Source of the DNA: Escherichia coli
GTDB lineage: Bacteria > Pseudomonadota > Gammaproteobacteria > Enterobacterales > Enterobacteriaceae
Assembly (NCBI RefSeq): GCF_017348835.2
Contig: NZ_CP071375.1
Direction: 5' to 3' (one strand)
Length of the DNA stretch: 64,000 bases
This document shows, one piece after another, positions 16,813-51,196 of this stretch (position 1 is the stretch's first letter; each line of letters begins with the position of its first letter). Both the position numbers and the translations under genes were made by a program. A model generated the notes under the pieces. That model was not told where the DNA came from, searched no databases, and worked only from the letters and a program-made list of their open reading frames with translations.

Positions 16813-17098
16813 TTATGTTGGCGTTTTCTATTCAGTATAGAAGTGGGAGCGGCCAGGCGAGATGCGGAAGTTCTGGAATGTTTCTTTTTTTGGTGATGGT
16901 GACTGAAGCAATTTGGCTACTTTTGCAATGTGACAAGTTATGGCACGGCTGGCTGGTGGCGAAGAATTTTGATGATTGGGGCGCGCAGAATAAAACTGGC
17001 TCAGCTTCAGTTGATCAAATGAGGAGTGAGAAGTCCGAAACAAGACTCACTGTATAAATAAACAGCTATTTTATTGAGGAAGGGTAAGATAACGGCGG

Positions 17099-17332
17099 GT
17101 GCCTGAAGCTTTCCGGTTTCAGGTTAACTCTGAGGTCTGGAAAGATGAAGCCCCAGGAGATATTTCTATCAACCCTGGGGCTACCTACCCAAACCTGAAC
17201 AATTTGGATGGTAGTCCCTTCTTCGCATGGAGGCAATATAAACATGCTGACGAAATATGCCCTTGTGGCAGTCATAGTGCTGTGTTTGACAGTGCTGGGA
17301 TTTACGCTTCTGGTCGGAGACTCGTTGTGTGA
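17099..17332 (+). CDS. mokE: Possible mokE, the overlapping reading frame that couples hokE translation; start codon uncertain
   Basis: Open frame in a different phase overlapping the hokE start, as in hok/mok loci; the annotated start at 17099 is GTG and lies close to the likely mRNA 5' end. Confidence 0.3.
17125..17200 (-). ncRNA. sokE: Expected position of the sokE antisense RNA (boundaries approximate)
   Basis: Inferred only from hok/sok family architecture (antisense to the mok leader upstream of hok); no promoter or terminator pinned down. Confidence 0.3.
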
Positions 17333-17396
17333 GTTTACGGTGAAGGAACGTAATATTGAGTTCAGGGCTGTTCTCGCTTACGAACCGAAGAAGTAG
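17244..17396 (+). CDS. hokE: HokE, type I toxin (small membrane-depolarising peptide)
   Basis: ATG at 17244; 50 aa [50 protein letters not shown], typical Hok TM helix plus conserved C-terminus. Confidence 0.9.
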
Positions 17397-17402
17397 CCGT
17401 TG

Positions 17403-17496
17403 TGCGGGGAGCAATCCCCGCATATCCGGTTGTCAGGTCAGAGTGGTAAGGCACCTGCTTTACACTTTCGCCCGCAGTCAGTGATGGCTGCGGGCG
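17403..17496. other. Two perfect hairpins downstream of hokE (hok mRNA 3' fold-back region / entD 3' end); the first carries a GGGG-N6-CCCC motif
   Basis: TGCGGGG-agcaat-CCCCGCA at 17403-17422 and CGCCCGCAG-N10-CTGCGGGCG at 17469-17496, read directly; neither has a clear U-tract. Confidence 0.6.
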
Positions 17497-17517
17497 AATC
17501 GTACCAGATGTTGTCAA

Positions 17518-18138
17518 TTAATCGTGTTGGCACAGAGTTATGACTATTTTTTCTTTTATCTGCCAGTGCACAGCAAACATCTCATTCTCACGATGAATGA
17601 TGACCTGCTGTTTATTCCAGCTAATTATCTGATAGTCCAGAAAACCTGCATCAGTTTGGATCTCACTTGCCTTAAATGCGCTCTCTTTGGCGGAAAATGC
17701 CAGTGTCAGCGCCAGAGAAAAGGCTAAACCGCAGTCAGCGAGTCGCTCGTGTTCTGCTGGTGTAATAATGTTGTCTGTCAATTCGGTCGCTGTTTGCGCA
17801 GAAAAAATTTCTTCGATATCAACGCCAATCGGTTGACGGGAAACCACGGCCAATGCCGTAGCCCCGCAGTGGCTAATACTGCCGTATACCTCCGCAGGCC
17901 ACACCGGTTGGCGTAGCTCGCCGATTGCGGGCACACATTTATAGCCATATTCCCGCAAGGCATAAACAGCAGCGATCCGTCCGGCTAAATGCTCCGTTTT
18001 ACGTTTACGTCCAGCGTGTTGCAGTTGTGCGTAGTGCGGCAGCCAGAGTAAATCCTGCTCACAAAAATTCGCCGGATCGAACTCAACAAAATGCAGCGTA
18101 TGTCCGGCAAAGGGGAGGGAGGTATGCGTAGTTTTCAT
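17518..18138 (-). CDS. entD: EntD, phosphopantetheinyl transferase for EntB/EntF
   Basis: ORF 17518-18288; start taken at MKTTHTSLPFAGH giving 206 aa (the longer ORF runs into a REP element). Confidence 0.88.
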   Translation of the reverse strand: MKTTHTSLPFAGHTLHFVEFDPANFCEQDLLWLPHYAQLQHAGRKRKTEHLAGRIAAVYALREYGYKCVPAIGELRQPVWPAEVYGSISHCGATALAVVSRQPIGVDIEEIFSAQTATELTDNIITPAEHERLADCGLAFSLALTLAFSAKESAFKASEIQTDAGFLDYQIISWNKQQVIIHRENEMFAVHWQIKEKIVITLCQHD

Positions 18139-18174
18139 ATCGACCATATTCGAGACTGATGACAAACGCAAAAC

Positions 18175-18275
18175 TGCCTGATGCGCTACGCTTATCAGGC
18201 CTACGTGGTCCTGCAATATATTGAATTGGCAAGATTTTTGTAGGCCGGATAAGGCGTTCACGCCGCATCCGGCAT
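18175..18275. repeat. REP/BIME-type palindromic repeats between entD and fepA
   Basis: GCCTGATGCGCTACGCTTATCAGGCCTAC and GTAGGCCGGATAAGGCGTTCACGCCGCATCCGGCA, typical REP palindromic units. Confidence 0.8.
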
Positions 18276-18312
18276 GAACGACGCGCACTTTGTCAACAAT
18301 CTGACGTTAGCA

Positions 18313-32757: not shown

Positions 32758-33933
32758 ATGGATACGTCACTGGCTGAGGAAGTACAGCAGACCATGGCAA
32801 CACTTGCGCCCAATCGCTTTTTCTTTATGTCGCCGTACCGCAGTTTTACGACGTCAGGATGTTTCGCCCGCTTCGATGAACCGGCTGTGAACGGGGATTC
32901 GCCCGACAGTCCCTTCCAGCAAAAACTCGCCGCGCTGTTTGCCGATGCCAAAGCGCAGGGCATCAAAAATCCGGTGATGGTCGGGGCGATTCCCTTCGAT
33001 CCACGTCAGCCTTCGTCGCTGTATATTCCTGAATCCTGGCAGTCGTTCTCCCGTCAGGAAAAACAAGCTTCCGCACGCCGTTTCACCCGCAGCCAGTCGC
33101 TGAATGTGGTGGAACGCCAGGCAATTCCGGAGCAAACCACGTTTGAACAGATGGTTGCCCGCGCCGCCGCACTTACCGCCACGCCGCAGGTCGACAAAGT
33201 GGTGTTGTCACGGTTGATTGATATCACCACTGACGCCGCCATTGATAGTGGCGTATTGCTGGAACGGTTGATTGCGCAAAACCCGGTTAGTTACAACTTC
33301 CATGTCCCGCTGGCAGATGGTGGCGTTCTGCTGGGGGCCAGCCCGGAACTGCTGCTACGTAAAGACGGTGAGCGTTTTAGCTCCATTCCGTTAGCCGGTT
33401 CCGCGCGTCGTCAGCCGGATGAAGTGCTCGATCGCGAAGCGGGTAATCGTCTGCTGGCGTCAGAAAAAGATCGCCATGAACATGAACTGGTGACTCAGGC
33501 GATGAAAGAGGTACTGCGCGAACGCAGTAGTGAGTTACACGTTCCTTCCTCTCCACAATTGATTACCACGCCGACGCTGTGGCATCTCGCAACTCCCTTT
33601 GAAGGTAAAGCGAATTCGCAAGAAAACGCACTGACTCTGGCCTGTCTGCTGCATCCGACCCCCGCGCTGAGTGGTTTCCCGCATCAGGCCGCGGCCCAGG
33701 TTATTGCTGAACTGGAGCCGTTCGACCGCGAACTGTTTGGCGGCATTGTGGGTTGGTGTGACAGCGAAGGTAACGGCGAATGGGTGGTGACCATCCGCTG
33801 CGCGAAGCTGCGGGAAAATCAGGTGCGTCTGTTTGCCGGAGCGGGGATTGTGCCTGCGTCGTCACCGTTGGGTGAGTGGCGCGAAACAGGCGTCAAACTT
33901 TCTACCATGTTGAACGTTTTTGGATTGCATTAA
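32758..33933 (+). CDS. entC: EntC, isochorismate synthase
   Basis: ORF 32746-33933; start taken at MDTSLAEEV giving 391 aa. Confidence 0.93.
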
Positions 33934-33942
33934 GGAGCGAGG

Positions 33943-35553
33943 ATGAGCATTCCATTCACCCGCTGGCCGGAAGAGTTTGCCCGTCGCTATCGGGAAAAAG
34001 GCTACTGGCAGGATTTGCCGCTGACCGACATTCTGACTCGCCACGCTGCGAGTGACAGCATCGCGGTTATCGACGGCGAGCGACAGTTGAGTTACCGGGA
34101 GCTGAATCAGGCGGCGGATAACCTCGCGTGTAGTTTACGCCGTCAGGGCATTAAACCTGGTGAAACCGCGCTGGTACAACTGGGTAACGTCGCTGAACTT
34201 TACATTACCTTTTTCGCACTGCTGAAACTGGGCGTTGCGCCGGTGCTGGCGCTGTTCAGCCATCAGCGTAGTGAACTGAACGCCTATGCCAGCCAGATTG
34301 AACCGGTGTTACTGATTGCCGATCGCCAACATGCGCTGTTTAGCGGGGATGATTTCCTCAATACTTTCGTCACAGAACATTCCTCCATTCGCGTGGTGCA
34401 ACTGCTCAACGACAGCGGTGAGCATAACTTGCAGGATGCGATTAACCATCCGGCTGAGGATTTTACTGCCACGCCGTCACCTGCTGATGAAGTGGCCTAT
34501 TTCCAGCTTTCCGGCGGCACCACCGGCACACCGAAACTGATCCCGCGCACTCATAACGACTACTACTACAGCGTGCGTCGTAGCGTCGAGATTTGTCAGT
34601 TCACACAACAGACACGCTACCTGTGCGCGATCCCGGCGGCTCATAACTACGCCATGAGTTCGCCGGGATCGCTGGGGGTATTTCTTGCCGGAGGAACGGT
34701 TGTTCTGGCGGCCGATCCCAGCGCCACGCTTTGCTTCCCATTGATTGAAAAACATCAGGTGAACGTTACCGCGCTGGTGCCACCGGCAGTCAGCCTGTGG
34801 TTGCAGGCGCTGGCTGAAGGCGAAAGCCGGGCGCAGCTTGCCTCGCTAAAACTGTTACAGGTCGGTGGCGCACGTCTTTCTGCCACGCTTGCGGCGCGTA
34901 TTCCCGCTGAGATTGGCTGCCAGTTGCAGCAGGTGTTTGGCATGGCGGAAGGGCTGGTGAACTACACCCGACTTGATGATAGCGCGGAGAAAATTATCCA
35001 TACCCAGGGTTACCCAATGTGTCCGGACGATGAAGTGTGGGTTGCCGATGCCGAAGGAAATCCACTGCCGCAAGGGGAAGTTGGACGCCTGATGACGCGC
35101 GGGCCGTACACCTTCCGCGGTTATTACAAAAGTCCGCAGCACAATGCCAGTGCCTTTGATGCCAACGGTTTTTACTGTTCCGGCGATCTGATCTCTATTG
35201 ATCCAGAGGGTTACATCACCGTGCAGGGGCGCGAGAAAGATCAGATCAACCGTGGCGGCGAGAAGATCGCTGCCGAAGAGATCGAAAACCTGCTGCTGCG
35301 CCATCCGGCGGTGATCTATGCCGCACTGGTGAGCATGGAAGATGAGCTGATGGGCGAAAAAAGCTGTGCTTATCTGGTGGTAAAAGAGCCGTTGCGCGCG
35401 GTGCAGGTGCGTCGTTTCCTGCGTGAACAGGGTATTGCCGAATTTAAATTACCGGATCGCGTGGAGTGTGTGGATTCACTTCCGCTGACGGCGGTCGGGA
35501 AAGTCGATAAAAAACAATTACGTCAGTGGCTGGCGTCACGCGCATCAGCCTGA
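33943..35553 (+). CDS. entE: EntE, 2,3-dihydroxybenzoate-AMP ligase
   Basis: 536-aa ORF; adenylate-forming motifs SGGTTGTPK and YCSGD. Confidence 0.95.
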
Positions 35554-35566
35554 AGGAGAGAACACG

Positions 35567-36423
35567 ATGGCTATTCCAAAATTACAGGCTTACGCATTGC
35601 CGGAGTCTCACGATATTCCACAGAATAAAGTCGATTGGGCCTTTGAACCGCAACGTGCCGCGTTGTTAATCCATGATATGCAGGACTATTTTGTCAGCTT
35701 CTGGGGCGAGAACTGCCCGATGATGGAGCAGGTGATCGCGAATATTGCTGCGCTGCGCGACTACTGTAAACAGCACAATATTCCGGTTTATTACACCGCC
35801 CAGCCGAAAGAGCAGAGCGATGAAGATCGGGCGCTGTTGAATGATATGTGGGGGCCGGGCCTGACCCGCTCGCCGGAACAGCAAAAGGTGGTGGATCGCC
35901 TGACGCCAGATGCCGACGACACGGTGCTGGTGAAGTGGCGCTACAGCGCGTTTCATCGTTCTCCGCTGGAGCAAATGCTCAAAGAGAGTGGACGTAACCA
36001 GCTGATTATTACAGGGGTATATGCCCACATTGGCTGTATGACCACCGCAACCGGCGCATTTATGCGCGATATTAAACCGTTTATGGTGGCGGATGCGCTG
36101 GCCGATTTCAGCCGTGACGAGCATTTGATGTCGCTGAAATATGTAGCCGGACGTTCTGGCCGGGTGGTGATGACCGAAGAATTACTGCCAGCACCTATCC
36201 CCGCCAGCAAAGCGGCGCTGCGTGAGGTGATCCTGCCGTTGCTGGACGAGTCCGATGAACCGTTCGATGACGACAACCTGATCGACTACGGTCTGGATTC
36301 GGTGCGCATGATGGCGCTGGCGGCGCGCTGGCGCAAAGTGCATGGCGATATCGACTTTGTCATGCTGGCGAAAAACCCGACCATCGACGCCTGGTGGAAG
36401 CTACTCTCCCGCGAGGTGAAATA

Positions 36424-36424
<1 letters not shown>
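35567..36424 (+). CDS. entB: EntB, isochorismatase / aryl carrier protein
   Basis: 285-aa ORF; carrier-protein serine motif GLDSV near C-terminus. Confidence 0.95.
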
Positions 36425-37586
<1,162 letters not shown>

Positions 37587-37628
37587 ACCCGACAGAATTA
37601 TATGAGATTGCAGGAAAACTCGGTTAAC

Positions 37629-37648
37629 GGAGTGATCGAGTTAACATT
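37629..37648. promoter_or_regulatory. CRP-like site upstream of cstA
   Basis: aGTGA-tcgagt-TaACA matches TGTGA-N6-TCACA at 4 of 5 positions in each half-site; cstA is a carbon-starvation gene. Confidence 0.4.
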
Positions 37649-37766
37649 GTTAAGTTAAATATTGGTTTCAACTCCGATTTACATGGTTGCTGTGTTGTTA
37701 AATTGCGCAAAGATGTTATAGAAACAAAATGTAACATCTCTATGGACACGCACACGGATAACAACT

Positions 37767-39872
37767 ATGAACAAATCAGGGAAATACCTCGTCTGGACAG
37801 TGCTCTCTGTAATGGGAGCATTTGCTCTGGGATACATTGCTTTAAATCGTGGGGAACAGATCAACGCGCTGTGGATTGTGGTGGCGTCGGTCTGTATCTA
37901 TCTGATCGCTTACCGTTTTTATGGCCTGTATATCGCCAAAAATGTGCTGGCGGTTGACCCGACGCGTATGACGCCAGCGGTGCGCCATAACGACGGGCTG
38001 GACTATGTGCCGACGGACAAGAAAGTGCTGTTCGGTCACCATTTTGCGGCCATTGCCGGAGCAGGTCCGTTGGTGGGGCCGGTGCTGGCAGCGCAAATGG
38101 GCTACCTGCCGGGGATGATCTGGCTGCTCGCCGGGGTGGTTCTCGCCGGTGCGGTGCAGGATTTCATGGTGCTGTTTGTTTCTACGCGCCGTGACGGTCG
38201 TTCGCTGGGTGAGCTGGTCAAAGAAGAGATGGGGCCAACCGCCGGGGTGATCGCGCTGGTGGCCTGCTTTATGATCATGGTCATTATCCTTGCAGTACTG
38301 GCGATGATCGTGGTGAAAGCCCTGACTCATAGCCCGTGGGGAACGTATACCGTTGCGTTCACCATTCCGCTGGCGCTGTTTATGGGGATCTACCTGCGCT
38401 ATCTGCGTCCGGGGCGTATTGGTGAAGTGTCGGTCATCGGTCTGGTATTCCTGATTTTCGCCATTATCTCTGGCGGCTGGGTGGCAGAAAGTCCGACCTG
38501 GGCACCGTACTTTGACTTTACCGGCGTGCAGCTGACCTGGATGCTGGTGGGTTACGGTTTTGTGGCGGCGGTGCTGCCGGTGTGGTTGCTGCTGGCTCCG
38601 CGTGACTACCTCTCTACCTTCCTGAAAATCGGGACGATCGTCGGTCTGGCGGTAGGCATTTTGATTATGCGCCCGACGCTGACCATGCCTGCACTAACTA
38701 AATTTGTTGATGGTACTGGCCCGGTATGGACCGGTAACCTGTTCCCGTTCCTGTTTATCACCATCGCCTGTGGCGCGGTGTCAGGCTTCCATGCGCTGAT
38801 CTCTTCCGGCACCACGCCGAAGATGCTGGCGAACGAAGGGCAGGCGTGCTTTATCGGCTACGGTGGAATGTTAATGGAATCCTTCGTGGCGATTATGGCG
38901 CTGGTTTCCGCCTGTATCATCGATCCGGGCGTTTACTTTGCCATGAACAGCCCAATGGCGGTGCTGGCTCCGGCAGGGACGGCGGATGTGGTCGCTTCTG
39001 CCGCGCAGGTGGTGAGTAGCTGGGGCTTTGCGATTACCCCGGATACGCTAAACCAGATTGCCAGCGAAGTGGGTGAACAGTCGATCATTTCCCGTGCGGG
39101 CGGTGCGCCGACGCTGGCGGTGGGGATGGCCTACATTCTGCACGGCGCGCTGGGCGGCATGATGGATGTGGCGTTCTGGTATCACTTCGCCATTTTGTTT
39201 GAAGCATTGTTTATTCTGACGGCGGTGGATGCAGGTACGCGTGCTGCGCGCTTTATGTTGCAGGATCTGCTGGGCGTGGTTTCTCCGGGCCTGAAACGGA
39301 CCGATTCACTGCCTGCTAACCTGCTGGCAACGGCGCTGTGCGTGCTAGCGTGGGGCTACTTCCTGCATCAGGGGGGGGTCGACCCGCTGGGTGGTATTAA
39401 CACTCTGTGGCCGCTGTTTGGTATTGCCAACCAGATGCTGGCAGGGATGGCGCTGATGCTCTGTGCCGTGGTGCTGTTCAAAATGAAACGTCAACGTTAC
39501 GCCTGGGTGGCGCTGGTACCAACGGCCTGGCTGCTGATTTGTACCCTGACCGCTGGCTGGCAGAAAGCGTTTAGCCCGGATGCGAAAGTCGGCTTCCTGG
39601 CCATTGCTAACAAGTTCCAGGCAATGATCGACAGCGGCAATATTCCGTCGCAGTATACTGAGTCACAGCTGGCGCAACTGGTGTTCAACAACCGTCTGGA
39701 TGCCGGGTTAACCATCTTCTTTATGGTGGTCGTGGTGGTTCTGGCACTGTTCTCGATTAAGACGGCACTTGCGGCATTGAAAGAGCCGAAGCCAACGGCG
39801 AAAGAAACGCCGTATGAGCCGATGCCGGAAAATGTTGAGGAGATCGTAGCGCAGGCGAAAGGCGCGCACTAA
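37767..39872 (+). CDS. cstA: CstA, carbon starvation protein / peptide-pyruvate transporter
   Basis: 701-aa polytopic membrane ORF; recognised by recall. Confidence 0.93.
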   Translation: MNKSGKYLVWTVLSVMGAFALGYIALNRGEQINALWIVVASVCIYLIAYRFYGLYIAKNVLAVDPTRMTPAVRHNDGLDYVPTDKKVLFGHHFAAIAGAGPLVGPVLAAQMGYLPGMIWLLAGVVLAGAVQDFMVLFVSTRRDGRSLGELVKEEMGPTAGVIALVACFMIMVIILAVLAMIVVKALTHSPWGTYTVAFTIPLALFMGIYLRYLRPGRIGEVSVIGLVFLIFAIISGGWVAESPTWAPYFDFTGVQLTWMLVGYGFVAAVLPVWLLLAPRDYLSTFLKIGTIVGLAVGILIMRPTLTMPALTKFVDGTGPVWTGNLFPFLFITIACGAVSGFHALISSGTTPKMLANEGQACFIGYGGMLMESFVAIMALVSACIIDPGVYFAMNSPMAVLAPAGTADVVASAAQVVSSWGFAITPDTLNQIASEVGEQSIISRAGGAPTLAVGMAYILHGALGGMMDVAFWYHFAILFEALFILTAVDAGTRAARFMLQDLLGVVSPGLKRTDSLPANLLATALCVLAWGYFLHQGGVDPLGGINTLWPLFGIANQMLAGMALMLCAVVLFKMKRQRYAWVALVPTAWLLICTLTAGWQKAFSPDAKVGFLAIANKFQAMIDSGNIPSQYTESQLAQLVFNNRLDAGLTIFFMVVVVVLALFSIKTALAALKEPKPTAKETPYEPMPENVEEIVAQAKGAH

Positions 39873-39879
39873 AGTCAGA

Positions 39880-40020
39880 GTGAGGGGGATGTTGGCGAAT
39901 GTTGGCATAGTGCCGAGGGTTCCCCCTCACTCTAACCATCTCCCCGATGGGGCGAGGGGACTGACCGAGCGCGTTGATAGCATTTGTAGGCCGGATAAAG
40001 CGTTCACGCCGCATCCGGCA
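39880..40020. repeat. Palindromic intergenic repeats (REP-like) between cstA and ybdD
   Basis: AGAGTGAGGGGGA ... TCCCCCTCACTCT inverted repeat at about 39880-39935, then REP unit GTAGGCCGGATAAAGCGTTCACGCCGCATCCGGCA. Confidence 0.75.
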
Positions 40021-40052
40021 CTCTTTCAGCAACATGGTTAGCGGAGGCCAAG

Positions 40053-40250
40053 ATGTTTGATTCACTGGCAAAAGCCGGAAAATATTTAGGTCAGGCGGCG
40101 AAGCTGATGATTGGTATGCCTGATTACGACAACTATGTCGAACATATGCGGGTTAACCATCCCGATCAAACGCCGATGACCTACGAAGAGTTTTTCCGTG
40201 AGCGGCAGGACGCGCGCTACGGTGGAAAAGGCGGCGCGCGCTGCTGCTAA
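40053..40250 (+). CDS. ybdD: YbdD, small DUF466-family protein co-located with cstA
   Basis: 65-aa ORF; recognised by recall. Confidence 0.85.
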
Positions 40251-41347
40251 ATTTGCACGTCAGGCTTTAACGATTCCACTTTTTCGAACGCTGCACGCAA
40301 CGTATCTGGTGTCAGCGTGACTGGCAGGTAATGAATGGACTCCACCGGGCGCAAGGTGTGGGCAATCACTTTGTCGATCTCCGCCTGATTATTGATATCC
40401 ACTTCCAGCTCCGCCAGCGTAGTCGGCAGATGAAAACGCTGATACGCTCCAGTTAATTGCGCCAGAACATCATCCTGACCCAGCAAGGCGCTTTGCACCA
40501 GAATTCCGTAGGCGACTTTGGTGCCGTGAAGAAACTTCTCGGTTTGCGGCAGCACGGTCAGACCGTTATGCACGGCGTGAGCCGCCGCCACACGCGTAAA
40601 ACGATCGCCCAGACCACCGACCATTCCACCTCCGGCGATAATGGCATCCACCACATCGCAAAATGATTGCGTTAACTGCTGATTTTGCTGATCGCTCAGC
40701 GCCTGTTCGCTACTGTTTAACAAGACGTCGCGAATGGCCTGCGCATTATTGATCCCCAGCCGCACGGTTAGCGGCAACGTTTCTGGTTGCGGAGCCAGCA
40801 CCACCGCTTCATACCATTTCGCCAGCGTGTCACCGATCCCCGCCAGCAGATATTGTTGCGGCGCATTGAGGATAATCTCTGGTTCCACCAGCACCATAAA
40901 ATTGGCGTCGTCGAAAATCTCATAATGCAGCGCCTGTCCGGCATCGTTATACCAGACGGAGAGCGGTGTCCAGGCGGCGCAGGTGGCGGCGATCGTCGGA
41001 GCGGCAACAAATGGCAGACCGAGACGGCGGGCGAGGGCTTTCGCGGTGTCGAGTAGTGCGCCGCCGCCGACGCCAATCACCACGCTGCGATCGTCACCGG
41101 ACTCAGCCGCCAGTTGTTGTACATCGCTTTCGCTGCAATGACCGCGAAACAAAATATGCTTTGCCCCCGGCAGTTCAAACGCTGGCGGAAGTTTGGTTTG
41201 CGCCGCAGCAATGGCGCGTTCGCCGTAGATCCACACCGCGCGAGAAAGTTGTTCATCAGTGAAAAAATCGTGCAGATGATTGAAACTTCCTGGATGTGAA
41301 AAGTAGTTAGCCGGGCCGACGACCACGCGGATAGGATTGTGAGGCAT
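40247..41347 (-). CDS. ybdH: YbdH, iron-containing (group III) alcohol/hydroxycarboxylate dehydrogenase
   Basis: 366-aa ORF (exact start not verified); glycerol-dehydrogenase-like motifs. Confidence 0.88.
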
Positions 41348-41455
41348 GTTGTGTTGTCCTTATTGTTTTATTTAGACATCTAAACGTCTTGATTGCCAAA
41401 TACTAGCATCGTGTTATAGTGCCTTCAACACGCAACTTCGTCAGGTACAATAAAA

Positions 41456-42616
41456 ATGACAAATAACCCTCTGATTCCACAAAGCAAACTTCCACAACTT
41501 GGCACCACTATTTTCACCCAGATGAGCGCGCTGGCGCAGCAACACCAGGCGATTAACCTGTCGCAAGGCTTTCCTGATTTTGATGGTCCGCGCTATTTAC
41601 AGGAGCGGCTGGCGTACCACGTTGCCCAAGGGGCAAACCAATACGCGCCCATGACCGGCGTGCAGGCCTTGCGCGAGGCGATTGCTCAGAAAACGGAACG
41701 TTTGTATGGCTATCAACCAGATGCCGATAGCGATATCACCGTAACGGCAGGGGCGACGGAGGCGTTATACGCGGCGATTACCGCATTGGTGCGCAATGGC
41801 GATGAAGTGATTTGTTTTGATCCCAGCTATGACAGTTACGCCCCCGCCATCGCGCTTTCTGGGGGAATAGTGAAGCGTATGGCACTGCAACCACCGCATT
41901 TTCGCGTTGACTGGCAGGAATTTGCCGCATTGTTAAGCGAGCGCACCAGACTGGTGATCCTCAACACTCCGCATAACCCCAGTGCAACTGTCTGGCAGCA
42001 GGCTGATTTCGCCGCTTTGTGGCAGGCGATCGCCGGGCACGAGATTTTTGTCATTAGCGATGAAGTCTACGAGCACATCAACTTTTCACAACAGGGCCAT
42101 GCCAGTGTGCTGGCGCATCCGCAGCTGCGTGAGCGGGCAGTGGCGGTTTCTTCATTTGGCAAGACCTATCATATGACCGGCTGGAAAGTGGGTTATTGTG
42201 TTGCGCCAGCGCCCATCAGCGCCGAAATTCGCAAGGTACATCAGTATCTGACCTTTTCGGTGAATACCCCGGCACAGCTGGCGCTTGCTGATATGCTACG
42301 TGCAGAACCTGAGCATTATCTTGCGTTACCGGACTTTTATCGCCAGAAGCGCGATATTCTGGTGAATGCTTTAAATGAAAGCCGGATGGAGATTTTACCG
42401 TGTGAAGGTACATACTTTTTGCTGGTGGATTACAGCGCCGTATCTACCCTGGATGATGTTGAGTTTTGCCAGTGGCTGACGCAGGAGCACGGCGTAGCGG
42501 CGATTCCGCTATCGGTGTTTTGCGCCGATCCCTTCCCTCATAAACTGATTCGTCTCTGTTTTGCCAAGAAGGAATCGACGTTGCTGGCAGCAGCTGAACG
42601 CCTGCGCCAGCTTTAG
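41456..42616 (+). CDS. ybdL: YbdL, PLP-dependent methionine aminotransferase
   Basis: 386-aa ORF; aminotransferase class I features including SFGKT (PLP lysine). Confidence 0.9.
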   Translation: MTNNPLIPQSKLPQLGTTIFTQMSALAQQHQAINLSQGFPDFDGPRYLQERLAYHVAQGANQYAPMTGVQALREAIAQKTERLYGYQPDADSDITVTAGATEALYAAITALVRNGDEVICFDPSYDSYAPAIALSGGIVKRMALQPPHFRVDWQEFAALLSERTRLVILNTPHNPSATVWQQADFAALWQAIAGHEIFVISDEVYEHINFSQQGHASVLAHPQLRERAVAVSSFGKTYHMTGWKVGYCVAPAPISAEIRKVHQYLTFSVNTPAQLALADMLRAEPEHYLALPDFYRQKRDILVNALNESRMEILPCEGTYFLLVDYSAVSTLDDVEFCQWLTQEHGVAAIPLSVFCADPFPHKLIRLCFAKKESTLLAAAERLRQL

Positions 42617-43246
42617 CTATTTAACCGTCCAGGCGCGGGAATATTGACGGTCGGCAAACAACTCTTGCAGGCCGTTAATTTGCTTCAGGCGCAGCACTTC
42701 GTCGCTGTCCATTCCCAGCTCTTTGCCAATTTTATTATCGTCCCATCCCAACTGGCTAAGTTCACGGACGATTTCCGACATGGCGGTGATTTGATGGCGT
42801 CCACGAGCGCGATTATGACGAATAGTCGCGGCGATGCGTTGATTACGCGTACCTTCCAGACAGGTCACCGGCAAATAACCTTTTAAGCGTAATTGTAATG
42901 ATGATGAGCCTTTACCAATTTCATGGCGGTGAAAACCATCCACGATTTCCAGGGCATTTTTATCCGTATGCGTGACCACAATGGGTTGGGTAAAACCATC
43001 TATTTCAATGGATTTTTTCAGCAGTTTTTTTTCGGGTGGTGCCACGTTGTTTGGGTTGTAATCATTAGGCATAAGTTGGCTGTTTTTAACCCACAGAACG
43101 CAATCCACTGGCTCTTCACGAAAGGGGCTAACCTGATGGATCGCCATGCGGATTTCATTAATCGCTTTGATGCGATCATCTTCCGGCAAGCTGGCGAGAA
43201 ATTGCGTTAAATCCTGCGTTAATCGTTGTTGCATAGTATCCCCCAT
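42617..43246 (-). CDS. ybdM: YbdM, ParB-like nuclease-domain protein (IbrB-like)
   Basis: 209-aa ORF; DGFHRH and RHNRARG motifs resemble ParB/sulfiredoxin boxes; 28-nt overlap with ybdN. Confidence 0.85.
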   Translation of the reverse strand: MGDTMQQRLTQDLTQFLASLPEDDRIKAINEIRMAIHQVSPFREEPVDCVLWVKNSQLMPNDYNPNNVAPPEKKLLKKSIEIDGFTQPIVVTHTDKNALEIVDGFHRHEIGKGSSSLQLRLKGYLPVTCLEGTRNQRIAATIRHNRARGRHQITAMSEIVRELSQLGWDDNKIGKELGMDSDEVLRLKQINGLQELFADRQYSRAWTVK

Positions 43247-44439
43247 TCCTGACGTTTTCCTTTTATCCGTTCGTTATAACGCTGATAGTTCTTCGCTTTC
43301 GTAGGACTAAATGATAATGCCCGACACCAGTAATCGTTATTGAGTAAAACTTTGCATATCCGCCGCCAGGAAGGGATATCTTTCGCGCCAATGTCCCCTT
43401 GCTGGGTTTGTGGAACCTCGATGCCTTTTTTCTGATACCAGTGCAAATAAATGGCGATTTTATTGCGGTAATGCTCAGCTGTTTTTTCCGGCATGCTATT
43501 GAGCAGCAATAATGCATATTCTTGCCAGTCTAAATGTTCTGGCTTGAGGATTTTCCGATGCCCATAGAAATGATTGTCATGTCCGGCGTAAATGCCGCCA
43601 CTTTTTACCCCGCTGACTCGTGCGCACATAGCAGCCCAGCGATCCGGTTCGATAACGTGATAGAGCCATAATCCTTGTCGTTGCTCCGGGCCAAAAGGTT
43701 CGCAAATTCGCATATGACGCAGAGGAACGCCTGCCTGATACATTAGGTTATACAGTGGGTTGCAGAGACTTTGATGATTTGCATACCAGGTCCAGATATC
43801 AGCCACTTTCCAGTCGTAAATGGGATAAATGTACCAGCTATGACCGCCTGGTGCGGCCGTAGTCCAGGGTTTATCGTCGGCAAAACGTTGTTTATTTAAA
43901 CTGGCGATGGCGACAAAACGGTTGTAGGACTCATCCGCACGGATGCCGATCATCATCGCCGCCGGACGTTTTTGTGAAAACCATTCGGCAAACTCACGTA
44001 CAAATTGTTCGAAGGTCATGCCTGGCTGGTAAAAGGAGAAAAAGTCAGGATCGGTTATCGCATCTTGCGGGGGCTGACGCACCCATTCGACATCAGGTTC
44101 CCAGCACTGCCATTCGGGTTGGTATTGTGAAAGGGAATTTTGCGTCGTAAGCGGGAGCGCAACCCAGTAAAACTCTTCGATGACATCGGTGTACAACTCG
44201 CGCAGGGACTGAACATAGTTAATGGTGCAAGAGAATTGCGCCTCCCAGTCGATAAACAAAACGCAGATTTTTTTGCCCATTTGTCGAGCAAGTTCGGCTG
44301 TCAGATGCAGCATTAAACCAGAGTCTTTGCCGCCAGAAAATGAGACACAAACGCGGGGTAGGGTGTTGAGTGTCCAGGTAATACGCTCTCGTGCAGCTTC
44401 CAGAATATTGAGCGGAAGAGGAATTTTATAAATAGACAT
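43219..44439 (-). CDS. ybdN: YbdN, PAPS-reductase-like PP-loop ATP pyrophosphatase family protein (IbrA-like)
   Basis: 406-aa ORF; PP-loop SFSGGKDS at residues 33-40. Confidence 0.85.
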   Translation of the reverse strand: MSIYKIPLPLNILEAARERITWTLNTLPRVCVSFSGGKDSGLMLHLTAELARQMGKKICVLFIDWEAQFSCTINYVQSLRELYTDVIEEFYWVALPLTTQNSLSQYQPEWQCWEPDVEWVRQPPQDAITDPDFFSFYQPGMTFEQFVREFAEWFSQKRPAAMMIGIRADESYNRFVAIASLNKQRFADDKPWTTAAPGGHSWYIYPIYDWKVADIWTWYANHQSLCNPLYNLMYQAGVPLRHMRICEPFGPEQRQGLWLYHVIEPDRWAAMCARVSGVKSGGIYAGHDNHFYGHRKILKPEHLDWQEYALLLLNSMPEKTAEHYRNKIAIYLHWYQKKGIEVPQTQQGDIGAKDIPSWRRICKVLLNNDYWCRALSFSPTKAKNYQRYNERIKGKRQEWGILCNND

Positions 44440-44585
44440 CTGAAGACGCTCTCTGAACGTTACAGGGTGATCAGTGAGATAAGACTGTTAATTATAAAGT
44501 AAACACTGAAAAGCAGAGTGTTTTATTTTTCATTCGCGCTGTGAATAAATAGGTGAAAGTTATAGTAGCTGTCTGAAGTTATATA

Positions 44586-45488
44586 TCAAAAACACTCATT
44601 TAGACGGTCAATAAATCGTGAGAACACCAGATTGTTTAAAGAAGATTTATTATAGGAAATGTAAAGCTTTATTGAAGGTAACGGATGTTCTAGTTTTATC
44701 TCTTTTAAATTAAGAAAATCACGGTGGGAGTTATAAAGTTCATAGGGGACTATTCCCAGTAAATCTGTAACTGCAATGCTATTAATGATTGTCAGCAAAG
44801 AGGAACCACGAAATGAAATTTTGCGATTCATAAATCTCTCGTCTATTTCCATTTGAATATCATCAACCCCTGCTGATTTAGATATTAATTGGGTGAACTC
44901 TTCTGCCATAATTTGTTCATAAGTGCTATTGTCAGTAATTCGTGGATGCCTATTACTACAAATTAGAGTATTGCGAATCGTATGCAATGGCATGCAAATG
45001 ACGGAACGGCTGATCACTGGCATTTGGGTGATCACCAGATCGGCTTTGCGGTGAACCAACAGTTCTTCAGCATTCTCTGCTGACATGAGGATATCATGGC
45101 ACTCAATCTCGACAGAGGAATCTTGCCGTAGGCAGCGGATCAGCATACTATTATTAGAGCAAGAAATGAGCTGAGGGCCGTGAATAATAAAGTTTTTCTT
45201 TAGTTCGGACTTATTGACTATATTAATTGTTTGTTCAAGGCCTCTGAGATTTTTCTCAAGATGGTGATGCAGATTTAACCCTGTTGTCGTCGGCGCGATA
45301 CCTTTTCCTGAGCGAATGAATAAAGGGTCATTAAATTGCGCACGTAAGCGTTGTAACGACTGGCTCACGGCTGATGGGGTGATATATAGTGATTCAGCAG
45401 CTTTGCTAATGCTTAAATGCTGGTAAATACACTCAAATATGACAAGAAGATTTAAGTCGAACTTTTTCAAGTCGTAGAGATTGGTCAT
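44586..45488 (-). CDS. ybdO: YbdO, LysR-family transcriptional regulator
   Basis: 300-aa ORF; N-terminal LysR HTH (LSISKAAESLYITPSAVSQSLQRLR); markedly AT-rich coding sequence. Confidence 0.88.
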   Translation of the reverse strand: MTNLYDLKKFDLNLLVIFECIYQHLSISKAAESLYITPSAVSQSLQRLRAQFNDPLFIRSGKGIAPTTTGLNLHHHLEKNLRGLEQTINIVNKSELKKNFIIHGPQLISCSNNSMLIRCLRQDSSVEIECHDILMSAENAEELLVHRKADLVITQMPVISRSVICMPLHTIRNTLICSNRHPRITDNSTYEQIMAEEFTQLISKSAGVDDIQMEIDERFMNRKISFRGSSLLTIINSIAVTDLLGIVPYELYNSHRDFLNLKEIKLEHPLPSIKLYISYNKSSLNNLVFSRFIDRLNECF

Positions 45489-45696
45489 ACACTACTCCGG
45501 TTATATTTTTCTTCCATGATATATTCACTTAATCAATGTTTTTTGCGTATATATTTTTATTGGTTATGTTTTTTTGCTTAACTCAGGATTAAGTTTTTCT
45601 AAAATAGCACAGCCACTTAGGGCAGAGCGAGCAATTCATGCTTTTTTAGGATGGTTGAAAAGCAGGGATATAGTTCAACCATCCATGAATTACCTT

Positions 45697-46443
45697 TTAT
45701 TTATTTCCCATAATGATATTAAGCGTTTTCTGATCGGGCAACCCCACGGCCTGTTGCAGCGTATTTTCCTTACTCATGTAATAGATAGCCGGCGTGACAT
45801 TTGCCCCCAGATCGTCCATCAGTTTCTCATTGTCACTTAACACTTTCATTTGCTCTGTACTTACGTTTGCAGGCACGTTTAGCTTAAGCTTGCCACCAGA
45901 GGCTTCATATTCTTGCCAGGTTTTTGCGGGATCTTTGGAGGCAAGAATTGCCGCGGCTGTCGCCGGACTTTCTGGTTTGATAACCCCAACCAACAATGTT
46001 CTCAACTGTACTTTGCCAGAATCTACCCACGGGCGCGCCTGCTGCCAGAACTGTTTACAATATGGGCAGAACGGATCGGCGAAGACGTAGACAATGACCG
46101 GCGCGTCTTTTTTACCGTCGAGGAGCCAGTGGGATTGTTCCATCCGTTGCCACATTTCGCGTCCGGCTGGTGCGTAAATTTCTTTTTCGATAAGTGTGTT
46201 ACTCAGGTTTTCACCTTTCTCGTTGTACATGTAACCAGAGATAGCGTGCTTACCATCTGGAGTCAGGTAGATGGTGACGCCCATATCCTGATACTTTCCG
46301 AGATAACCTTTCATTCCTCCGGGGGCATCGAACGTTTTGATGATTGTAATGCCCTGTTTTTCAATCGCTTTTACTGGAGCAGGAAGTTCCTCTGCGAAGG
46401 CGATTGCAGGAAGCAGAGCCAGTAAAAGTATCTTTTTTAACAT
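45697..46443 (-). CDS. dsbG: DsbG, periplasmic disulfide isomerase
   Basis: ORF 45697-46503; start taken at [17 protein letters not shown] (signal peptide) giving 248 aa; CPYC active site. Confidence 0.92.
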
Positions 46444-46726
46444 TAATTTGTCCTTTTCAGTCAGTGCAAAAGTCGAGTAAAAGGCATAACCTATCACTGT
46501 CATAGGTAAGAGCTTAGATCAGGTGATTGCCCTTTGTTTATGAGGGTGTTGTAATCCATGTCGTTGTTGCATTTGTAAGGGCAACACCTCAGCCTGCAGG
46601 CAGGCGCTGAAGATACCAAAGGGTAGTTCAGATTACACGGTCACCTGGAAAGGGGGCCATTTTACTTTTTATCGCCGCTGGCGGTGCAAAGTTCACAAAG
46701 TTGTCTTACGAAGGTTGTAAGGTAAA

Positions 46727-46814
46727 ACTTATCGATTTGATAATGGAAACGCATTAGCCGAATCGGCAAAAATTGGTTACCTTACATCTCATCGAAAACA
46801 CGGAGGAAGTATAG
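46727..46814. promoter_or_regulatory. ahpC promoter / OxyR-binding region (approximate)
   Basis: Position upstream of ahpC in the divergent dsbG-ahpC region, with GGAGGAAG SD at 46801-46808; OxyR assignment from prior knowledge of the ahpC promoter, motif not derived here. Confidence 0.45.
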
Positions 46815-47378
46815 ATGTCCTTGATTAACACCAAAATTAAACCTTTTAAAAACCAGGCATTCAAAAACGGCGAATTCATCGAAATCACCGAAAAAGATAC
46901 CGAAGGCCGCTGGAGCGTCTTCTTCTTCTACCCGGCTGACTTTACTTTCGTATGCCCGACCGAACTGGGTGACGTTGCTGACCACTACGCAGAACTGCAG
47001 AAACTGGGCGTAGACGTATACGCAGTATCTACCGATACTCACTTCACCCACAAAGCATGGCACAGCAGCTCTGAAACCATCGCTAAAATCAAATATGCGA
47101 TGATCGGCGACCCGACTGGCGCCCTGACCCGTAACTTCGACAACATGCGTGAAGATGAAGGTCTGGCTGACCGTGCGACCTTCGTTGTTGACCCGCAGGG
47201 TATCATCCAGGCAATCGAAGTTACCGCTGAAGGCATTGGCCGTGACGCGTCTGACCTGCTGCGTAAAATCAAAGCAGCACAGTACGTAGCTTCTCACCCA
47301 GGTGAAGTTTGCCCGGCTAAATGGAAAGAAGGTGAAGCAACTCTGGCTCCGTCTCTGGACCTGGTTGGTAAAATCTAA
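46815..47378 (+). CDS. ahpC: AhpC, alkyl hydroperoxide reductase peroxiredoxin
   Basis: 187-aa ORF; peroxidatic Cys motif FTFVCPTE; strong SD; highly expressed-type codon usage. Confidence 0.97.
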
Positions 47379-47517
47379 ATTTCCTTCGTCTTTCACGCCA
47401 TAGCGGCGTTGGCGTCGCCCGTTCACCCCGGTCACTTACTTATGTAAGCTCCCGGGGATTCACAGGCTAGCCGCCTTGCTCTGACGCGAAATACTTCGGA
47501 AATTCACCTAATTCTTC

Positions 47518-47540
47518 GGGTGCTGCGGCACCCGATTTTC
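47518..47540 (+). terminator. Hairpin plus U-rich tract in the ahpC-ahpF spacer (partial terminator/attenuator)
   Basis: GGGTGC-TGCG-GCACCC followed by GATTTTCTTCC, read directly. Confidence 0.5.
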
Positions 47541-47622
47541 TTCCCCGCACCATGATGCAAGCTGCATCCAGGTAGCCGCAGAGGCCGCTTGCATGATGAT
47601 GTTTAAAGCCCAGGAGATAAAC

Positions 47623-49188
47623 ATGCTCGACACAAATATGAAAACTCAACTCAAGGCTTACCTTGAGAAATTGACCAAGCCTGTTGAGTTAATTGCCACG
47701 CTGGATGACAGCGCTAAATCGGCAGAAATCAAGGAACTGTTGGCTGAAATCGCAGAACTGTCAGACAAAGTCACCTTTAAAGAAGATAACAGCTTGCCGG
47801 TGCGTAAGCCGTCTTTCCTGATCACCAACCCAGGTTCCAACCAGGGGCCACGTTTTGCAGGCTCCCCGCTGGGCCACGAGTTCACCTCGCTGGTACTGGC
47901 GTTACTGTGGACCGGTGGTCATCCGTCGAAAGAAGCGCAGTCTCTGCTGGAGCAGATTCGCCATATTGACGGTGATTTTGAATTCGAAACCTATTACTCG
48001 CTCTCTTGCCATAACTGCCCGGACGTGGTGCAGGCGCTGAACCTGATGAGCGTATTGAACCCGCGCATCAAGCACACTGCAATTGACGGCGGCACCTTCC
48101 AGAACGAGATCACTGATCGTAACGTGATGGGCGTTCCGGCAGTGTTCGTGAACGGGAAAGAGTTTGGTCAGGGCCGCATGACGTTGACTGAAATCGTTGC
48201 CAAAATTGATACGGGCGCGGAAAAACGTGCGGCAGAAGAGCTGAACAAGCGTGATGCTTATGACGTATTAATCGTTGGTTCCGGCCCGGCGGGTGCAGCG
48301 GCAGCAATTTACTCCGCACGTAAAGGCATCCGTACCGGTCTGATGGGCGAACGTTTTGGTGGTCAGATCCTCGATACCGTTGATATCGAAAACTACATTT
48401 CTGTACCGAAGACTGAAGGGCAGAAGTTGGCAGGCGCACTGAAAGTTCACGTTGATGAATACGACGTTGATGTGATCGACAGCCAGAGCGCCAGCAAACT
48501 GATCCCGGCAGCGGTTGAAGGTGGTCTACACCAGATTGAAACAGCTTCTGGCGCGGTACTGAAAGCACGCAGCATTATCGTGGCGACCGGTGCAAAATGG
48601 CGCAACATGAATGTTCCGGGCGAAGATCAGTATCGCACCAAAGGCGTGACCTACTGCCCGCACTGCGACGGTCCGCTGTTTAAAGGCAAACGCGTAGCGG
48701 TTATCGGCGGCGGTAACTCCGGCGTGGAAGCGGCAATCGACCTGGCGGGTATCGTTGAGCACGTAACGCTGCTGGAATTTGCGCCAGAAATGAAAGCCGA
48801 CCAGGTTCTGCAGGACAAACTGCGCAGCCTGAAAAACGTCGACATCATTCTGAATGCGCAAACTACGGAAGTGAAAGGCGACGGCAGCAAAGTCGTTGGT
48901 CTGGAATATCGTGATCGTGTCAGCGGCGATATTCACAACATCGAACTGGCCGGTATTTTCGTCCAGATTGGTCTGCTGCCGAACACCAACTGGCTGGAAG
49001 GCGCAGTCGAACGTAACCGCATGGGTGAGATTATCATTGATGCGAAATGCGAAACCAACGTCAAAGGCGTATTCGCAGCGGGTGACTGTACGACGGTTCC
49101 GTACAAGCAGATCATCATCGCCACTGGCGAAGGTGCCAAAGCCTCTCTGAGTGCTTTTGACTACCTGATTCGCACCAAAACTGCATAA
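47623..49188 (+). CDS. ahpF: AhpF, alkyl hydroperoxide reductase flavoprotein subunit
   Basis: ORF 47593-49188; start taken at [13 protein letters not shown] giving 521 aa; FAD motif [12 protein letters not shown], redox CPHCDG. Confidence 0.95.
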
Positions 49189-49217
49189 GAAGAAGTAAGA
49201 TTCACCTGCAATTGCTT

Positions 49218-49249
49218 AGCCGCCGGGGTCAAACCTGGCGGCTTTTTTA
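49218..49249 (+). terminator. Rho-independent terminator of ahpF
   Basis: AGCCGCC-N12-GGCGGCT followed by TTTTTT; a second GC-rich imperfect hairpin (49261-49288) with T-run on the minus strand probably terminates convergent uspG. Confidence 0.75.
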
Positions 49250-49308
49250 TGGCAATAAAAAGCCCCGCCGGGATGGCTCCGGGCAGGGCTGGAGACTTAT
49301 TCTGGCAA

Positions 49309-49737
49309 TTAACGCACAACCAGCACCGGCAGATTGGCGTGGCGGATCACGCTCGAGGCGTTAGAACCTAACAGATGGGTCGAAATCGATGGGTTGCGAG
49401 AACCGATAACTACAACATCAGCCCCCAGTTCTTCTGCCAACTCATTGACTTCATCCCGCACGCTACCAAAACGGACATGTTGTTTAATGCGGGAAGGATC
49501 GATGGTGAAGTGGCTGACCATCGTTTGCAGACGTTCTTCTGCTTCATGTTGCAGATGCTCTTCAAAACGACGCACATCAGCGGCAAAACGGTGCAGGCTC
49601 AGGCTGGCTGACCCGGGTAGTACGTGAAGTAGATGAATAACTCCGTCATCCTGAGCGAGGAATTCAGCGTGGCGAACAGCTTTGTCGCTCAATTCCATTT
49701 CAAATACATCAACTGGCATAATGATTGTCTTATACAT
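49309..49737 (-). CDS. uspG: UspG, universal stress protein G
   Basis: 142-aa ORF; Usp fold features; recognised by recall. Confidence 0.9.
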
Positions 49738-49957
49738 AACCCTTTCTCCCTGTTAATCATGAACAAATCATTCGCCATGATTATAATATTTATCCCTGAT
49801 ATTTGTCTGGTTCTTTTTCCTTACGAACGGTTTCTGTGATGAATATATTCTCACTGAACACCAGGAATTCTCCCAAAACCTGCGGTACCGCCCGTTTTCC
49901 CGCTGTGATAGCTACCCTTAAAGACTGACTCTTTTTTGAACTGTCTCTGGAGGTTGC

Positions 49958-51196
49958 ATGAAAGCATTGACTTATCACGGCCCACATCACGTTCAGGTAG
50001 AAAATGTTCCCGATCCGGGCATTGAACAGGCAGATGATATTATTCTGCGTATAACGGCAACGGCGATCTGTGGCTCTGACCTCCATCTTTATCGAGGCAA
50101 AATACCCCAGGTTAAACATGGCGATATTTTTGGTCATGAATTTATGGGGGAAGTCGTTGAAACCGGAAAGGACGTAAAAAATTTGCAAAAAGGCGACCGG
50201 GTGGTAATTCCGTTCGTCATTGCTTGTGGCGACTGTTTTTTCTGTCGATTACAGCAATATGCCGCCTGCGAAAATACCAATGCGGGTAAAGGCGCTGCGC
50301 TCAATAAAAAACAGATACCAGCACCAGCGGCATTGTTTGGTTATAGTCACCTGTATGGTGGCGTTCCTGGCGGGCAGGCGGAATATGTCCGCGTCCCTAA
50401 AGGGAATGTGGGGCCGTTTAAAGTACCGCCTTTGCTTTCAGATGATAAAGCCCTTTTCCTTTCTGATATTCTGCCAACGGCATGGCAGGCAGCAAAAAAT
50501 GCGCAGATCCAACAAGGTTCAAGCGTTGCAGTCTATGGTGTTGGTCCTGTGGGATTGTTGACAATCGCCTGTGCACGGTTGCTCGGTGCGGAACAGATTT
50601 TTGTTGTTGATCATCATCCCTACCGCTTGCATTTCGCCGCCGACCGCTACGGCGCGATCCCGATTAATTTTGATGAAGACAGCGATCCGGCACAGTCAAT
50701 TATTGAACAAACGGCAGGTCACCGGGGCGTGGATGCAGTAATAGACGCCGTCGGTTTTGAAGCGAAAGGCAGCACCACGGAAACGATGCTGACTAACCTG
50801 AAACTGGAGGGCAGCAGCGGTAAAGCGTTGCGCCAGTGTATTGCGGCGGTCAGGCGTGGCGGCATTGTTAGCGTACCGGGCGTCTACGCTGGATTTATTC
50901 ACGGTTTCCTGTTTGGCGACGCCTTTGATAAAGGGTTGACGTTTAAAATGGGACAGACCCACGTTCACGCATGGCTGGGAGAATTATTACCGTTAATTGA
51001 GAAAGGATTACTGAAACCAGAAGAAATTGTTACCCACTATATGCCGTTTGAAGAGGCCGCCCGGGGATATGAGATTTTCGAAAAACGTGAAGAGGAGTGC
51101 CGTAAGGTGATTCTGGTACCCGGTGCACAAAGCGCAGAGGCGGCGCAGAAGGCGGTTTCAGGTCTGGTGAATGCGATGCCGGGGGGAACAATATGA
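49958..51196 (+). CDS. ybdR: YbdR, Zn-dependent alcohol dehydrogenase family oxidoreductase
   Basis: 412-aa ORF; zinc-ADH motifs GHEFMGEV and CGDCFFC. Confidence 0.9.

Follow-up and report, generated by a model that had tools for sequence, protein, structure and literature searches.

An Unoccupied IS186 Target Site Within the Post-Stop Hairpin of hokE in a Non-K-12 Lineage of Escherichia coli

In plasmid R1, the structure reported here has a close described counterpart, the 3'-terminal stem-loop of truncated hok mRNA, a GC-rich hairpin that is located a few nucleotides past the stop codon and upstream of the fold-back inhibition element (fbi). Saturation mutagenesis of R1 hok recovered 19 loss-of-function substitutions by which C-G pairs within the truncated mRNA's terminal stem are broken (PMC9841398). 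When this stem is broken, the truncated mRNA disappears, in the authors' view through the action of 3'-to-5' exonucleases, and toxicity is abolished (PMC9841398). In the Escherichia coli K-12 chromosome, hok loci have been inactivated by IS elements, and intact loci are present in other strains (Pedersen & Gerdes 1999, as cited in PMC7232551). For one of these loci, hokC (gef), PMC3562002 states that the IS186 copy positioned downstream of the gene is thought to disrupt fbi and the normal processing of the mRNA.

Here we analyze the hokE locus contained in a 64-kb stretch of E. coli DNA (referred to as the window), in which the toxin gene is followed by a palindrome that serves IS186 as a target in strain MG1655. 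In 2001, SaiSree, Reddy and Gowrishankar reportedly described that IS186, a member of the IS4 family, prefers sites in which a run of G residues and a run of C residues are separated by a short spacer, with the lon promoter as a hot spot. The GGGG-N6-CCCC core is common to this target preference and to the window site, but the window target is unoccupied. We consider it very probable that the palindrome represents an intact, never-occupied allele of an IS186 hot spot and, at the same time, a functional component of the type I toxin-antitoxin locus hokE.

According to the table of open reading frames, hokE is encoded on the plus strand at positions 17244-17396, with the TAG stop codon at 17394-17396, and specifies a 50-amino acid toxin of the Hok/Gef family. 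This reading frame is matched by NCBIfam Hok family models with E-values of 4.5e-13 and 3.7e-10, both under the curated equivalog/subfamily cut-offs, and RefSeq uses the name hokE for the locus in strain F2_81 (99.9% identical) and in thousands of genomes. The 5' leader of the hokE mRNA (17097-17252, plus strand) matches Rfam model RF01794 ("sok") over its full length (model positions 1-157) with 87.1 bits versus a gathering score of 59 (E 7.7e-20). Its first 8 nt (17097-17104, plus strand) form a predicted tac element, GGGUGCCU; on the same strand, the predicted fbi element, AGGCACCU, complementary to the 5' end of the mRNA, occupies 17449-17456. Pairing of these two elements over 8 bp is part of the MFE structure, with in silico probabilities of 0.86-0.96, and the fold of the whole predicted hokE transcript has a z-score of -7.8. 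The 60-nt antisense RNA sokE maps to the minus strand at 17141-17200 by homology to the MG1655 annotation (b4835); the MG1655 and window sequences agree at 42 of 42 positions over 17141-17182 and show five differences in the remaining 18 nt (17183-17200). Judged from these components, the locus reads as a complete hok/sok-type module comprising the Hok peptide, a structured leader, the antisense sokE RNA and a predicted tac/fbi pairing, the fold-back by which hok mRNAs are defined.

Toward its distal end, the hokE-entD intergenic region contains a terminal 14-bp stem-loop without a U tract (17468-17499, plus strand; fold of -28.1 kcal/mol), which is likely the 3' end of the full-length hokE mRNA. 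The dinucleotide CA at 17475-17476 in the 5' arm of this hairpin is TG in K-12, an exchange through which a C-G and an A-U pair become U-G and G-U wobbles and pairing is kept. The adjacent entD gene, encoding a phosphopantetheinyl transferase, is convergent with hokE (17518-18138, minus strand), as seen both in the table of open reading frames and in the annotations of MG1655 and F2_81.

Several other features of this neighborhood deserve to be recorded. The RF01794 "sok antitoxin" match runs in the hok-sense direction along the full hok leader (157 positions from the mRNA 5' end); since the annotated sokE is a 60-nt antisense transcript, the match marks the locus and not the antitoxin strand. 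RefSeq lists a "hypothetical protein" of about 89 amino acids antisense to the hokE leader (window 17066-17275, minus strand; L003 1508-1776; L002 3007-3276), which some strains carry in intact form and which a frameshift has made a pseudogene in F2_81. This reading frame, which overlaps both sokE and the structured leader, was probably annotated in error. Rfam matches to mir-1990 and mir-331 (19-20 bits) fall far under the gathering score and were set aside as chance, and a promoter scan of 16900-17600 returned no promoter evidence for hokE or sokE. On the other side of entD, the entD-fepA intergenic region (18150-18290) contains REP-like palindromes, gcctgatgcgctacgcttatcaggcctac ... aggccggataaggcgttcacgccgcatccggca, and part of it has a further match near window position 39983-40020.

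The spacer between the end of the hokE stop codon (17396) and the stop codon of entD (17518-17520, minus strand) measures 121 bp. Starting 7 nt past the hokE stop, it contains the perfect 7+7 palindrome TGCGGGGAGCAATCCCCGCA at 17403-17422. Both the exact position of this hairpin and a spacer of about 120 bp between the two stops (17396 and 17518) had been given in a first-pass annotation of the window that was made from the sequence alone. Embedded in the palindrome is the IS186 target GGGG-N6-CCCC, here GGGGAGCAATCCCC (17406-17419, not strand-specific), and within it the 12-bp segment that is duplicated upon IS186 insertion, GGGAGCAATCCC (17407-17418). At the RNA level, both the MFE and the centroid fold yield a post-stop stem-loop of the hokE mRNA at 17401-17424 (plus strand) with a 10-bp stem (UGUGCGGGGA/UCCCCGCAUA) and the loop GCAA; in the fold of the full transcript, the pairs of this stem have probabilities between 0.72 (outermost pair) and 1.00.

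In MG1655, hokE (607836-607988; b4415) is directly followed by IS186B (insL2, b0582) and then by entD (609459-610079); this is the IS186 copy that the first-pass annotation had named for the position. The element resides inside the hairpin, its junctions being ...TGCGGGGAGTAATCC(C)|ATAAGCGC...GCGCTTAT|(G)GGAGTAATCCCCGCA... or, in a longer form, ...GTAGCCGTTGTGCGGGGAGTAATCCC|ATAAGCGCTAACTT... and ...AAGTTAGCGCTTAT|GGGAGTAATCCCCGCATATCCGG... IS186B can be described as a 1337-bp element with a 12-bp duplication, GGGAGTAATCCC, or, with C...G termini, as a 1339-bp element with a 10-bp duplication. The distance of 1470 bp from hokE to entD in MG1655 is the sum of 121, 1337, and 12 bp. When the IS element and one copy of the duplication are removed from the MG1655 sequence, TGCGGGGAGTAATCCCCGCA is restored, which is the window 20-mer with a single change in the loop (C in the window, T in K-12; GCAA versus GUAA in the RNA). 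The two loci share their neighbors (ybdK-sokE/hokE-entD-fepA) as well as the hairpin and are collinear once the IS element and one duplication copy are taken out, whereas the window possesses neither the 1337-bp IS186 nor the 12-bp duplication.

These comparisons bear out the reading of the first-pass annotation that the window carries an empty site and an undisrupted hokE 3' region. A blastn search with the 1339-bp MG1655 IS186 gave no match anywhere in the 64-kb window, and the hairpin is intact. The alignment to MG1655 that had been proposed as a check places the 12-bp duplication GGGAGTAATCCC so that it is centered on exactly this hairpin; two arrangements that had been named as speaking against an empty site, an IS186 copy elsewhere or a hairpin kept whole beside the element, are both absent from MG1655, where the stem is split and the IS lies inside the interval 17401-17424. 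The claimed collinearity with K-12 extends over 2,952 bp at the hokE region with 96.6% identity, and the conclusion that the DNA does not come from MG1655 holds as well. A 20-kb segment of the window (30000-50000; ent/cstA/ahpF) is 100% identical to the corresponding DNA of the pig isolates PE164 and F2_81; among the matches listed from a search of 5,426 complete genomes, all others reached at most 98.4% over this segment, and only PE164 and F2_81 were at least 99% identical. By these identities, the source of the window is placed as a non-K-12 E. coli of the PE164/F2_81 lineage, a lineage that is sparsely sampled, because only two of the 5,426 complete genomes are at least 99% identical.

The position of the hairpin relative to the stop codon is a conserved property of the hok family. 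In every hok-family 3' UTR that we examined, a stable hairpin begins 3-10 nt past the stop codon, with stem sequences that differ. This set consists of seven distinct 3' UTR sequences (six hok types), namely those of hokE, hokC, hokX, a srnB-like IncF locus, a pnd-like IncK locus, a Providencia plasmid, and a Vibrio plasmid. The stems of the various hok types are too dissimilar for a MAFFT alignment; the hairpins were judged by per-sequence folds with shuffle controls and have MFE values of -14.8 to -26.8 kcal/mol and z-scores of -3.1 to -5.1. An IncFII hok variant possesses a sole GC-rich stem in its 3' UTR, GGCGGGC-GCAG-GCCCGCC, directly past the stop codon at +337 to +354, and this stem fits R1 positions G345/C358 only with an inferred shift in numbering of 4-5 nt, the leader of the variant being a few nucleotides shorter than that of R1.

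As in R1 hok, the GC-rich hairpin of hokE stands a few nucleotides past the stop codon and upstream of fbi; the stem sequence, however, is a different one, and the protection of the processed mRNA is a feature of R1 that is predicted for hokE. By analogy with R1 hok, the full-length hokE mRNA would be shortened slowly in the 3'-to-5' direction, losing fbi and the terminal hairpin, until trimming halts at the post-stop stem, and this stem would shield the processed, translatable mRNA from exonucleases. The segment 17401-17424 is accordingly annotated by us as the predicted protective 3' end of the processed hokE mRNA. IS186 enters the center of the GGGG-N6-CCCC core and duplicates GGG-N6-CCC. 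In K-12, IS186 separates the fbi element from hokE; the insertion splits the stem, and fbi and the terminal hairpin, moved 1.35 kb from hokE, would be lost to the transcript, a change that in published work is seen as inactivating the normal regulation of the locus. We infer both the RNA-protective role of the stem in hokE and this functional consequence of the insertion.

A different function for the hairpin, that of a Rho-independent terminator of hokE or of the convergent entD without any further role, is quite improbable, even though a stable GC-rich stem that directly follows a stop codon and stands between convergent genes would be suited to it and one IS186 copy of MG1655, IS186C, did enter a genuine terminator (that of nupC). 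No U tract (T run) follows the stem on either strand, and a terminator scan of 16900-17600 found 0 sites, findings that rule out a canonical Rho-independent terminator. Furthermore, fbi, the predicted partner of the mRNA 5' end, is located 25 nt downstream, so that the polymerase has to pass the hairpin to reach it, and a stronger second hairpin is present at 17468-17499.

The use that IS186 makes of such sites is consistent from one insertion to the next. All six IS186 copies that we examined are located in the center of a GGGG-N6-CCCC palindrome, each with a 12-bp GGG-N6-CCC duplication, in agreement with the motif preference invoked in the first-pass annotation. At hokE, IS186 is found in one orientation in MG1655 and in the opposite orientation, at the same exact position, in strains MDR_56, AR_0061, and GPEC87-32-644. 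The opposite-orientation insertions have the same 12-bp duplication, which in GPEC87-32-644 is present as the C allele of the window, GGGAGCAATCCC. Two paralogous hok loci are targeted at the equivalent post-stop hairpin. In hokC (gef) of MG1655, the sequence reconstructed around IS186A is GGCGGGGATCACTCCCCGCC and the duplication is GGGATCACTCCC, while in hokX of strain Br_112_kylling, which lies in the cysH-cas3 interval, the duplication is GGGGTAAAACCC; these are different loci from hokE and, unlike the window site, they are occupied and not empty. The third IS186 copy of MG1655 (IS186C, NC_000913 2514273-2515617; duplication GGGATAATTCCC) is held by the hairpin of the nupC Rho-independent terminator, GCCGGGGATAATTCCCCGG (AAAAAAGCCGGGGATAATTCCCCGGTTTTTTT), and therefore all three K-12 copies occupy GGGG-N6-CCCC RNA hairpins. 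A published IS186 insertion recovered with a plasmid trap is flanked by the direct repeat GGGGTGCCCCC (PMC12102499).

At several of the occupied loci, the organization around hokE is more complex than in MG1655. MDR_56 (L004 2387-5083) and GPEC87-32-644 (L006 989-4352) harbor hokE-IS186-hokE-IS186 tandem arrays, in which the IS elements are oriented opposite to K-12 and every copy is bordered by identical 12-bp duplications. The single IS186 of strain Ec55 (L016, 3562-4898) has unlike flanks (left, GGGAGTAATCCC; right, GGGAGCAATCCC), which match the left half of the hairpin of hokE copy 1 and the right half of that of copy 2; these mismatched flanks imply that two IS186 copies recombined and that one hokE unit was thereby deleted. 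Some lineages, represented by strain 81009 (L002, NZ_CP021179.1, 3245-6498), have two tandem hokE copies, the first with a T and the second with a C in the loop. An island with two SDR oxidoreductases and an ABC transporter follows these copies in 81009 and replaces the direct adjacency of hokE and entD; its breakpoint corresponds to window position ~17498, with divergence beginning directly after the terminal hairpin. In AR_0061 (L017 1919-3288), IS150 is positioned immediately upstream of hokE and IS186 downstream, and the locus is bracketed by the two IS elements.

Both the occupied and the empty state, which the first-pass annotation had suggested surveying across E. coli, were found among 5,426 complete genomes, with counts given as genomes showing at least 80% query coverage. 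The whole 801-bp hokE-entD segment was uninterrupted in 2,836 genomes. A 92-bp segment centered on the intact hairpin was recovered from up to 3,646 genomes, a number that is inflated by tandem hokE-IS186 arrays whose out-of-order pieces were joined into one place. The left and right junctions of the K-12 orientation were detected in 1,874 and 1,727 genomes, respectively, and those of the opposite orientation in 1,057 and 286, the left-junction counts being inflated by the hokX flank, which is about 92% identical to that of hokE and was also matched. The categories overlap, their raw counts summing to more than the number of genomes, and the right-junction queries were taken as hokE-specific. 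By these right junctions, hokE is occupied by IS186 in about 2,000 genomes (~37%), and roughly two thirds of the genomes keep at least one intact hairpin; since laboratory derivatives of K-12 and B are over-represented in RefSeq, these survey figures are not natural frequencies. The first-pass annotation is to be refined in two respects: the hairpin is a conserved hok-mRNA element and not merely a target motif, and in E. coli an empty site is more common than an occupied one.

One might ask whether the window site is healed rather than pre-insertional, an ancestral IS186 having been lost from it by precise excision. IS186 is frequent at hokE in E. coli, recombination between the duplicated 12-bp repeats could theoretically rebuild the hairpin, and the mismatched flanks of Ec55 demonstrate that rearrangements around these IS copies occur. 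Precise excision through 12-bp repeats is rare, however, and the intact state is not only the commoner one but is also spread over diverse backgrounds (O55:H7, O111:H8, and ST131-like strains). The window carries the C allele in the loop and K-12 the T allele, and IS186 was not found in the 64-kb window. We hold a derived empty site to be very improbable indeed.

The GGGG-N6-CCCC motif by itself is no more than chance in the window, where it occurs once versus 0.89 times expected from shuffles, at least one copy being present in 60 of 100 shuffles. It is the context of the site and its use by IS186 (the 10-bp RNA stem and the exact K-12 insertion position), and not the motif as such, that make it real. 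That the whole palindrome is without significance and resembles the IS186 motif by coincidence is scarcely credible, as the 20-mer differs from K-12 by one loop base in a region (hokE transcript to entD, 17097-17517, 421 bp) with 17 substitutions, a hairpin is present at the same position in the seven hok-family 3' UTRs despite their different stem sequences, and IS186 has used the site repeatedly and in both orientations.

The empty state of this IS186 hot spot within hokE was already known, as was the K-12 insertion; that IS elements inactivate hok loci of K-12 was published in 1999. What is added here is the exact anatomy of the site (the duplication, the two orientations, and the paralogous insertions), a rough survey of its occupancy, and the recognition that the target is a conserved hok-mRNA stem. 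A wider reading, according to which IS186 is repeatedly trapped, throughout E. coli, by the hairpins that follow the stop codons of chromosomal hok genes, is suggested by the independent occupation of hokE in both orientations, by the insertions at the equivalent stem of hokC and hokX, by the roughly one third of complete genomes that are occupied at hokE, and by the recombination of IS186 copies in tandem hokE arrays, through which hokE units are deleted or amplified; we regard it as improbable. If it were true that insertion is repeatedly selected for disabling toxin regulation, the element that protects the mRNA would be the weak point of the locus. The principle was noted in 1999, and only the population-scale picture and the remodeling of the arrays might be new.

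An undisrupted 3' region does not prove that a locus is active, because other intact chromosomal hok loci that had been tested earlier gave no post-segregational killing, as summarized in a preprint (bioRxiv 10.1101/2025.08.07.668861). The intact 3' region is necessary for regulated hok expression and is not proof of it. The finding that the lineage of the window keeps an undisrupted hokE 3' UTR matters little beyond correct annotation. Nevertheless, a strain with the empty site would be a better background than K-12 for native hokE/sokE regulation, and whether hokE carries IS186, and in which orientation, can serve as a lineage marker. The locus offers a clean example of one sequence that would function as an RNA stability element and is at the same time a transposon hot spot.
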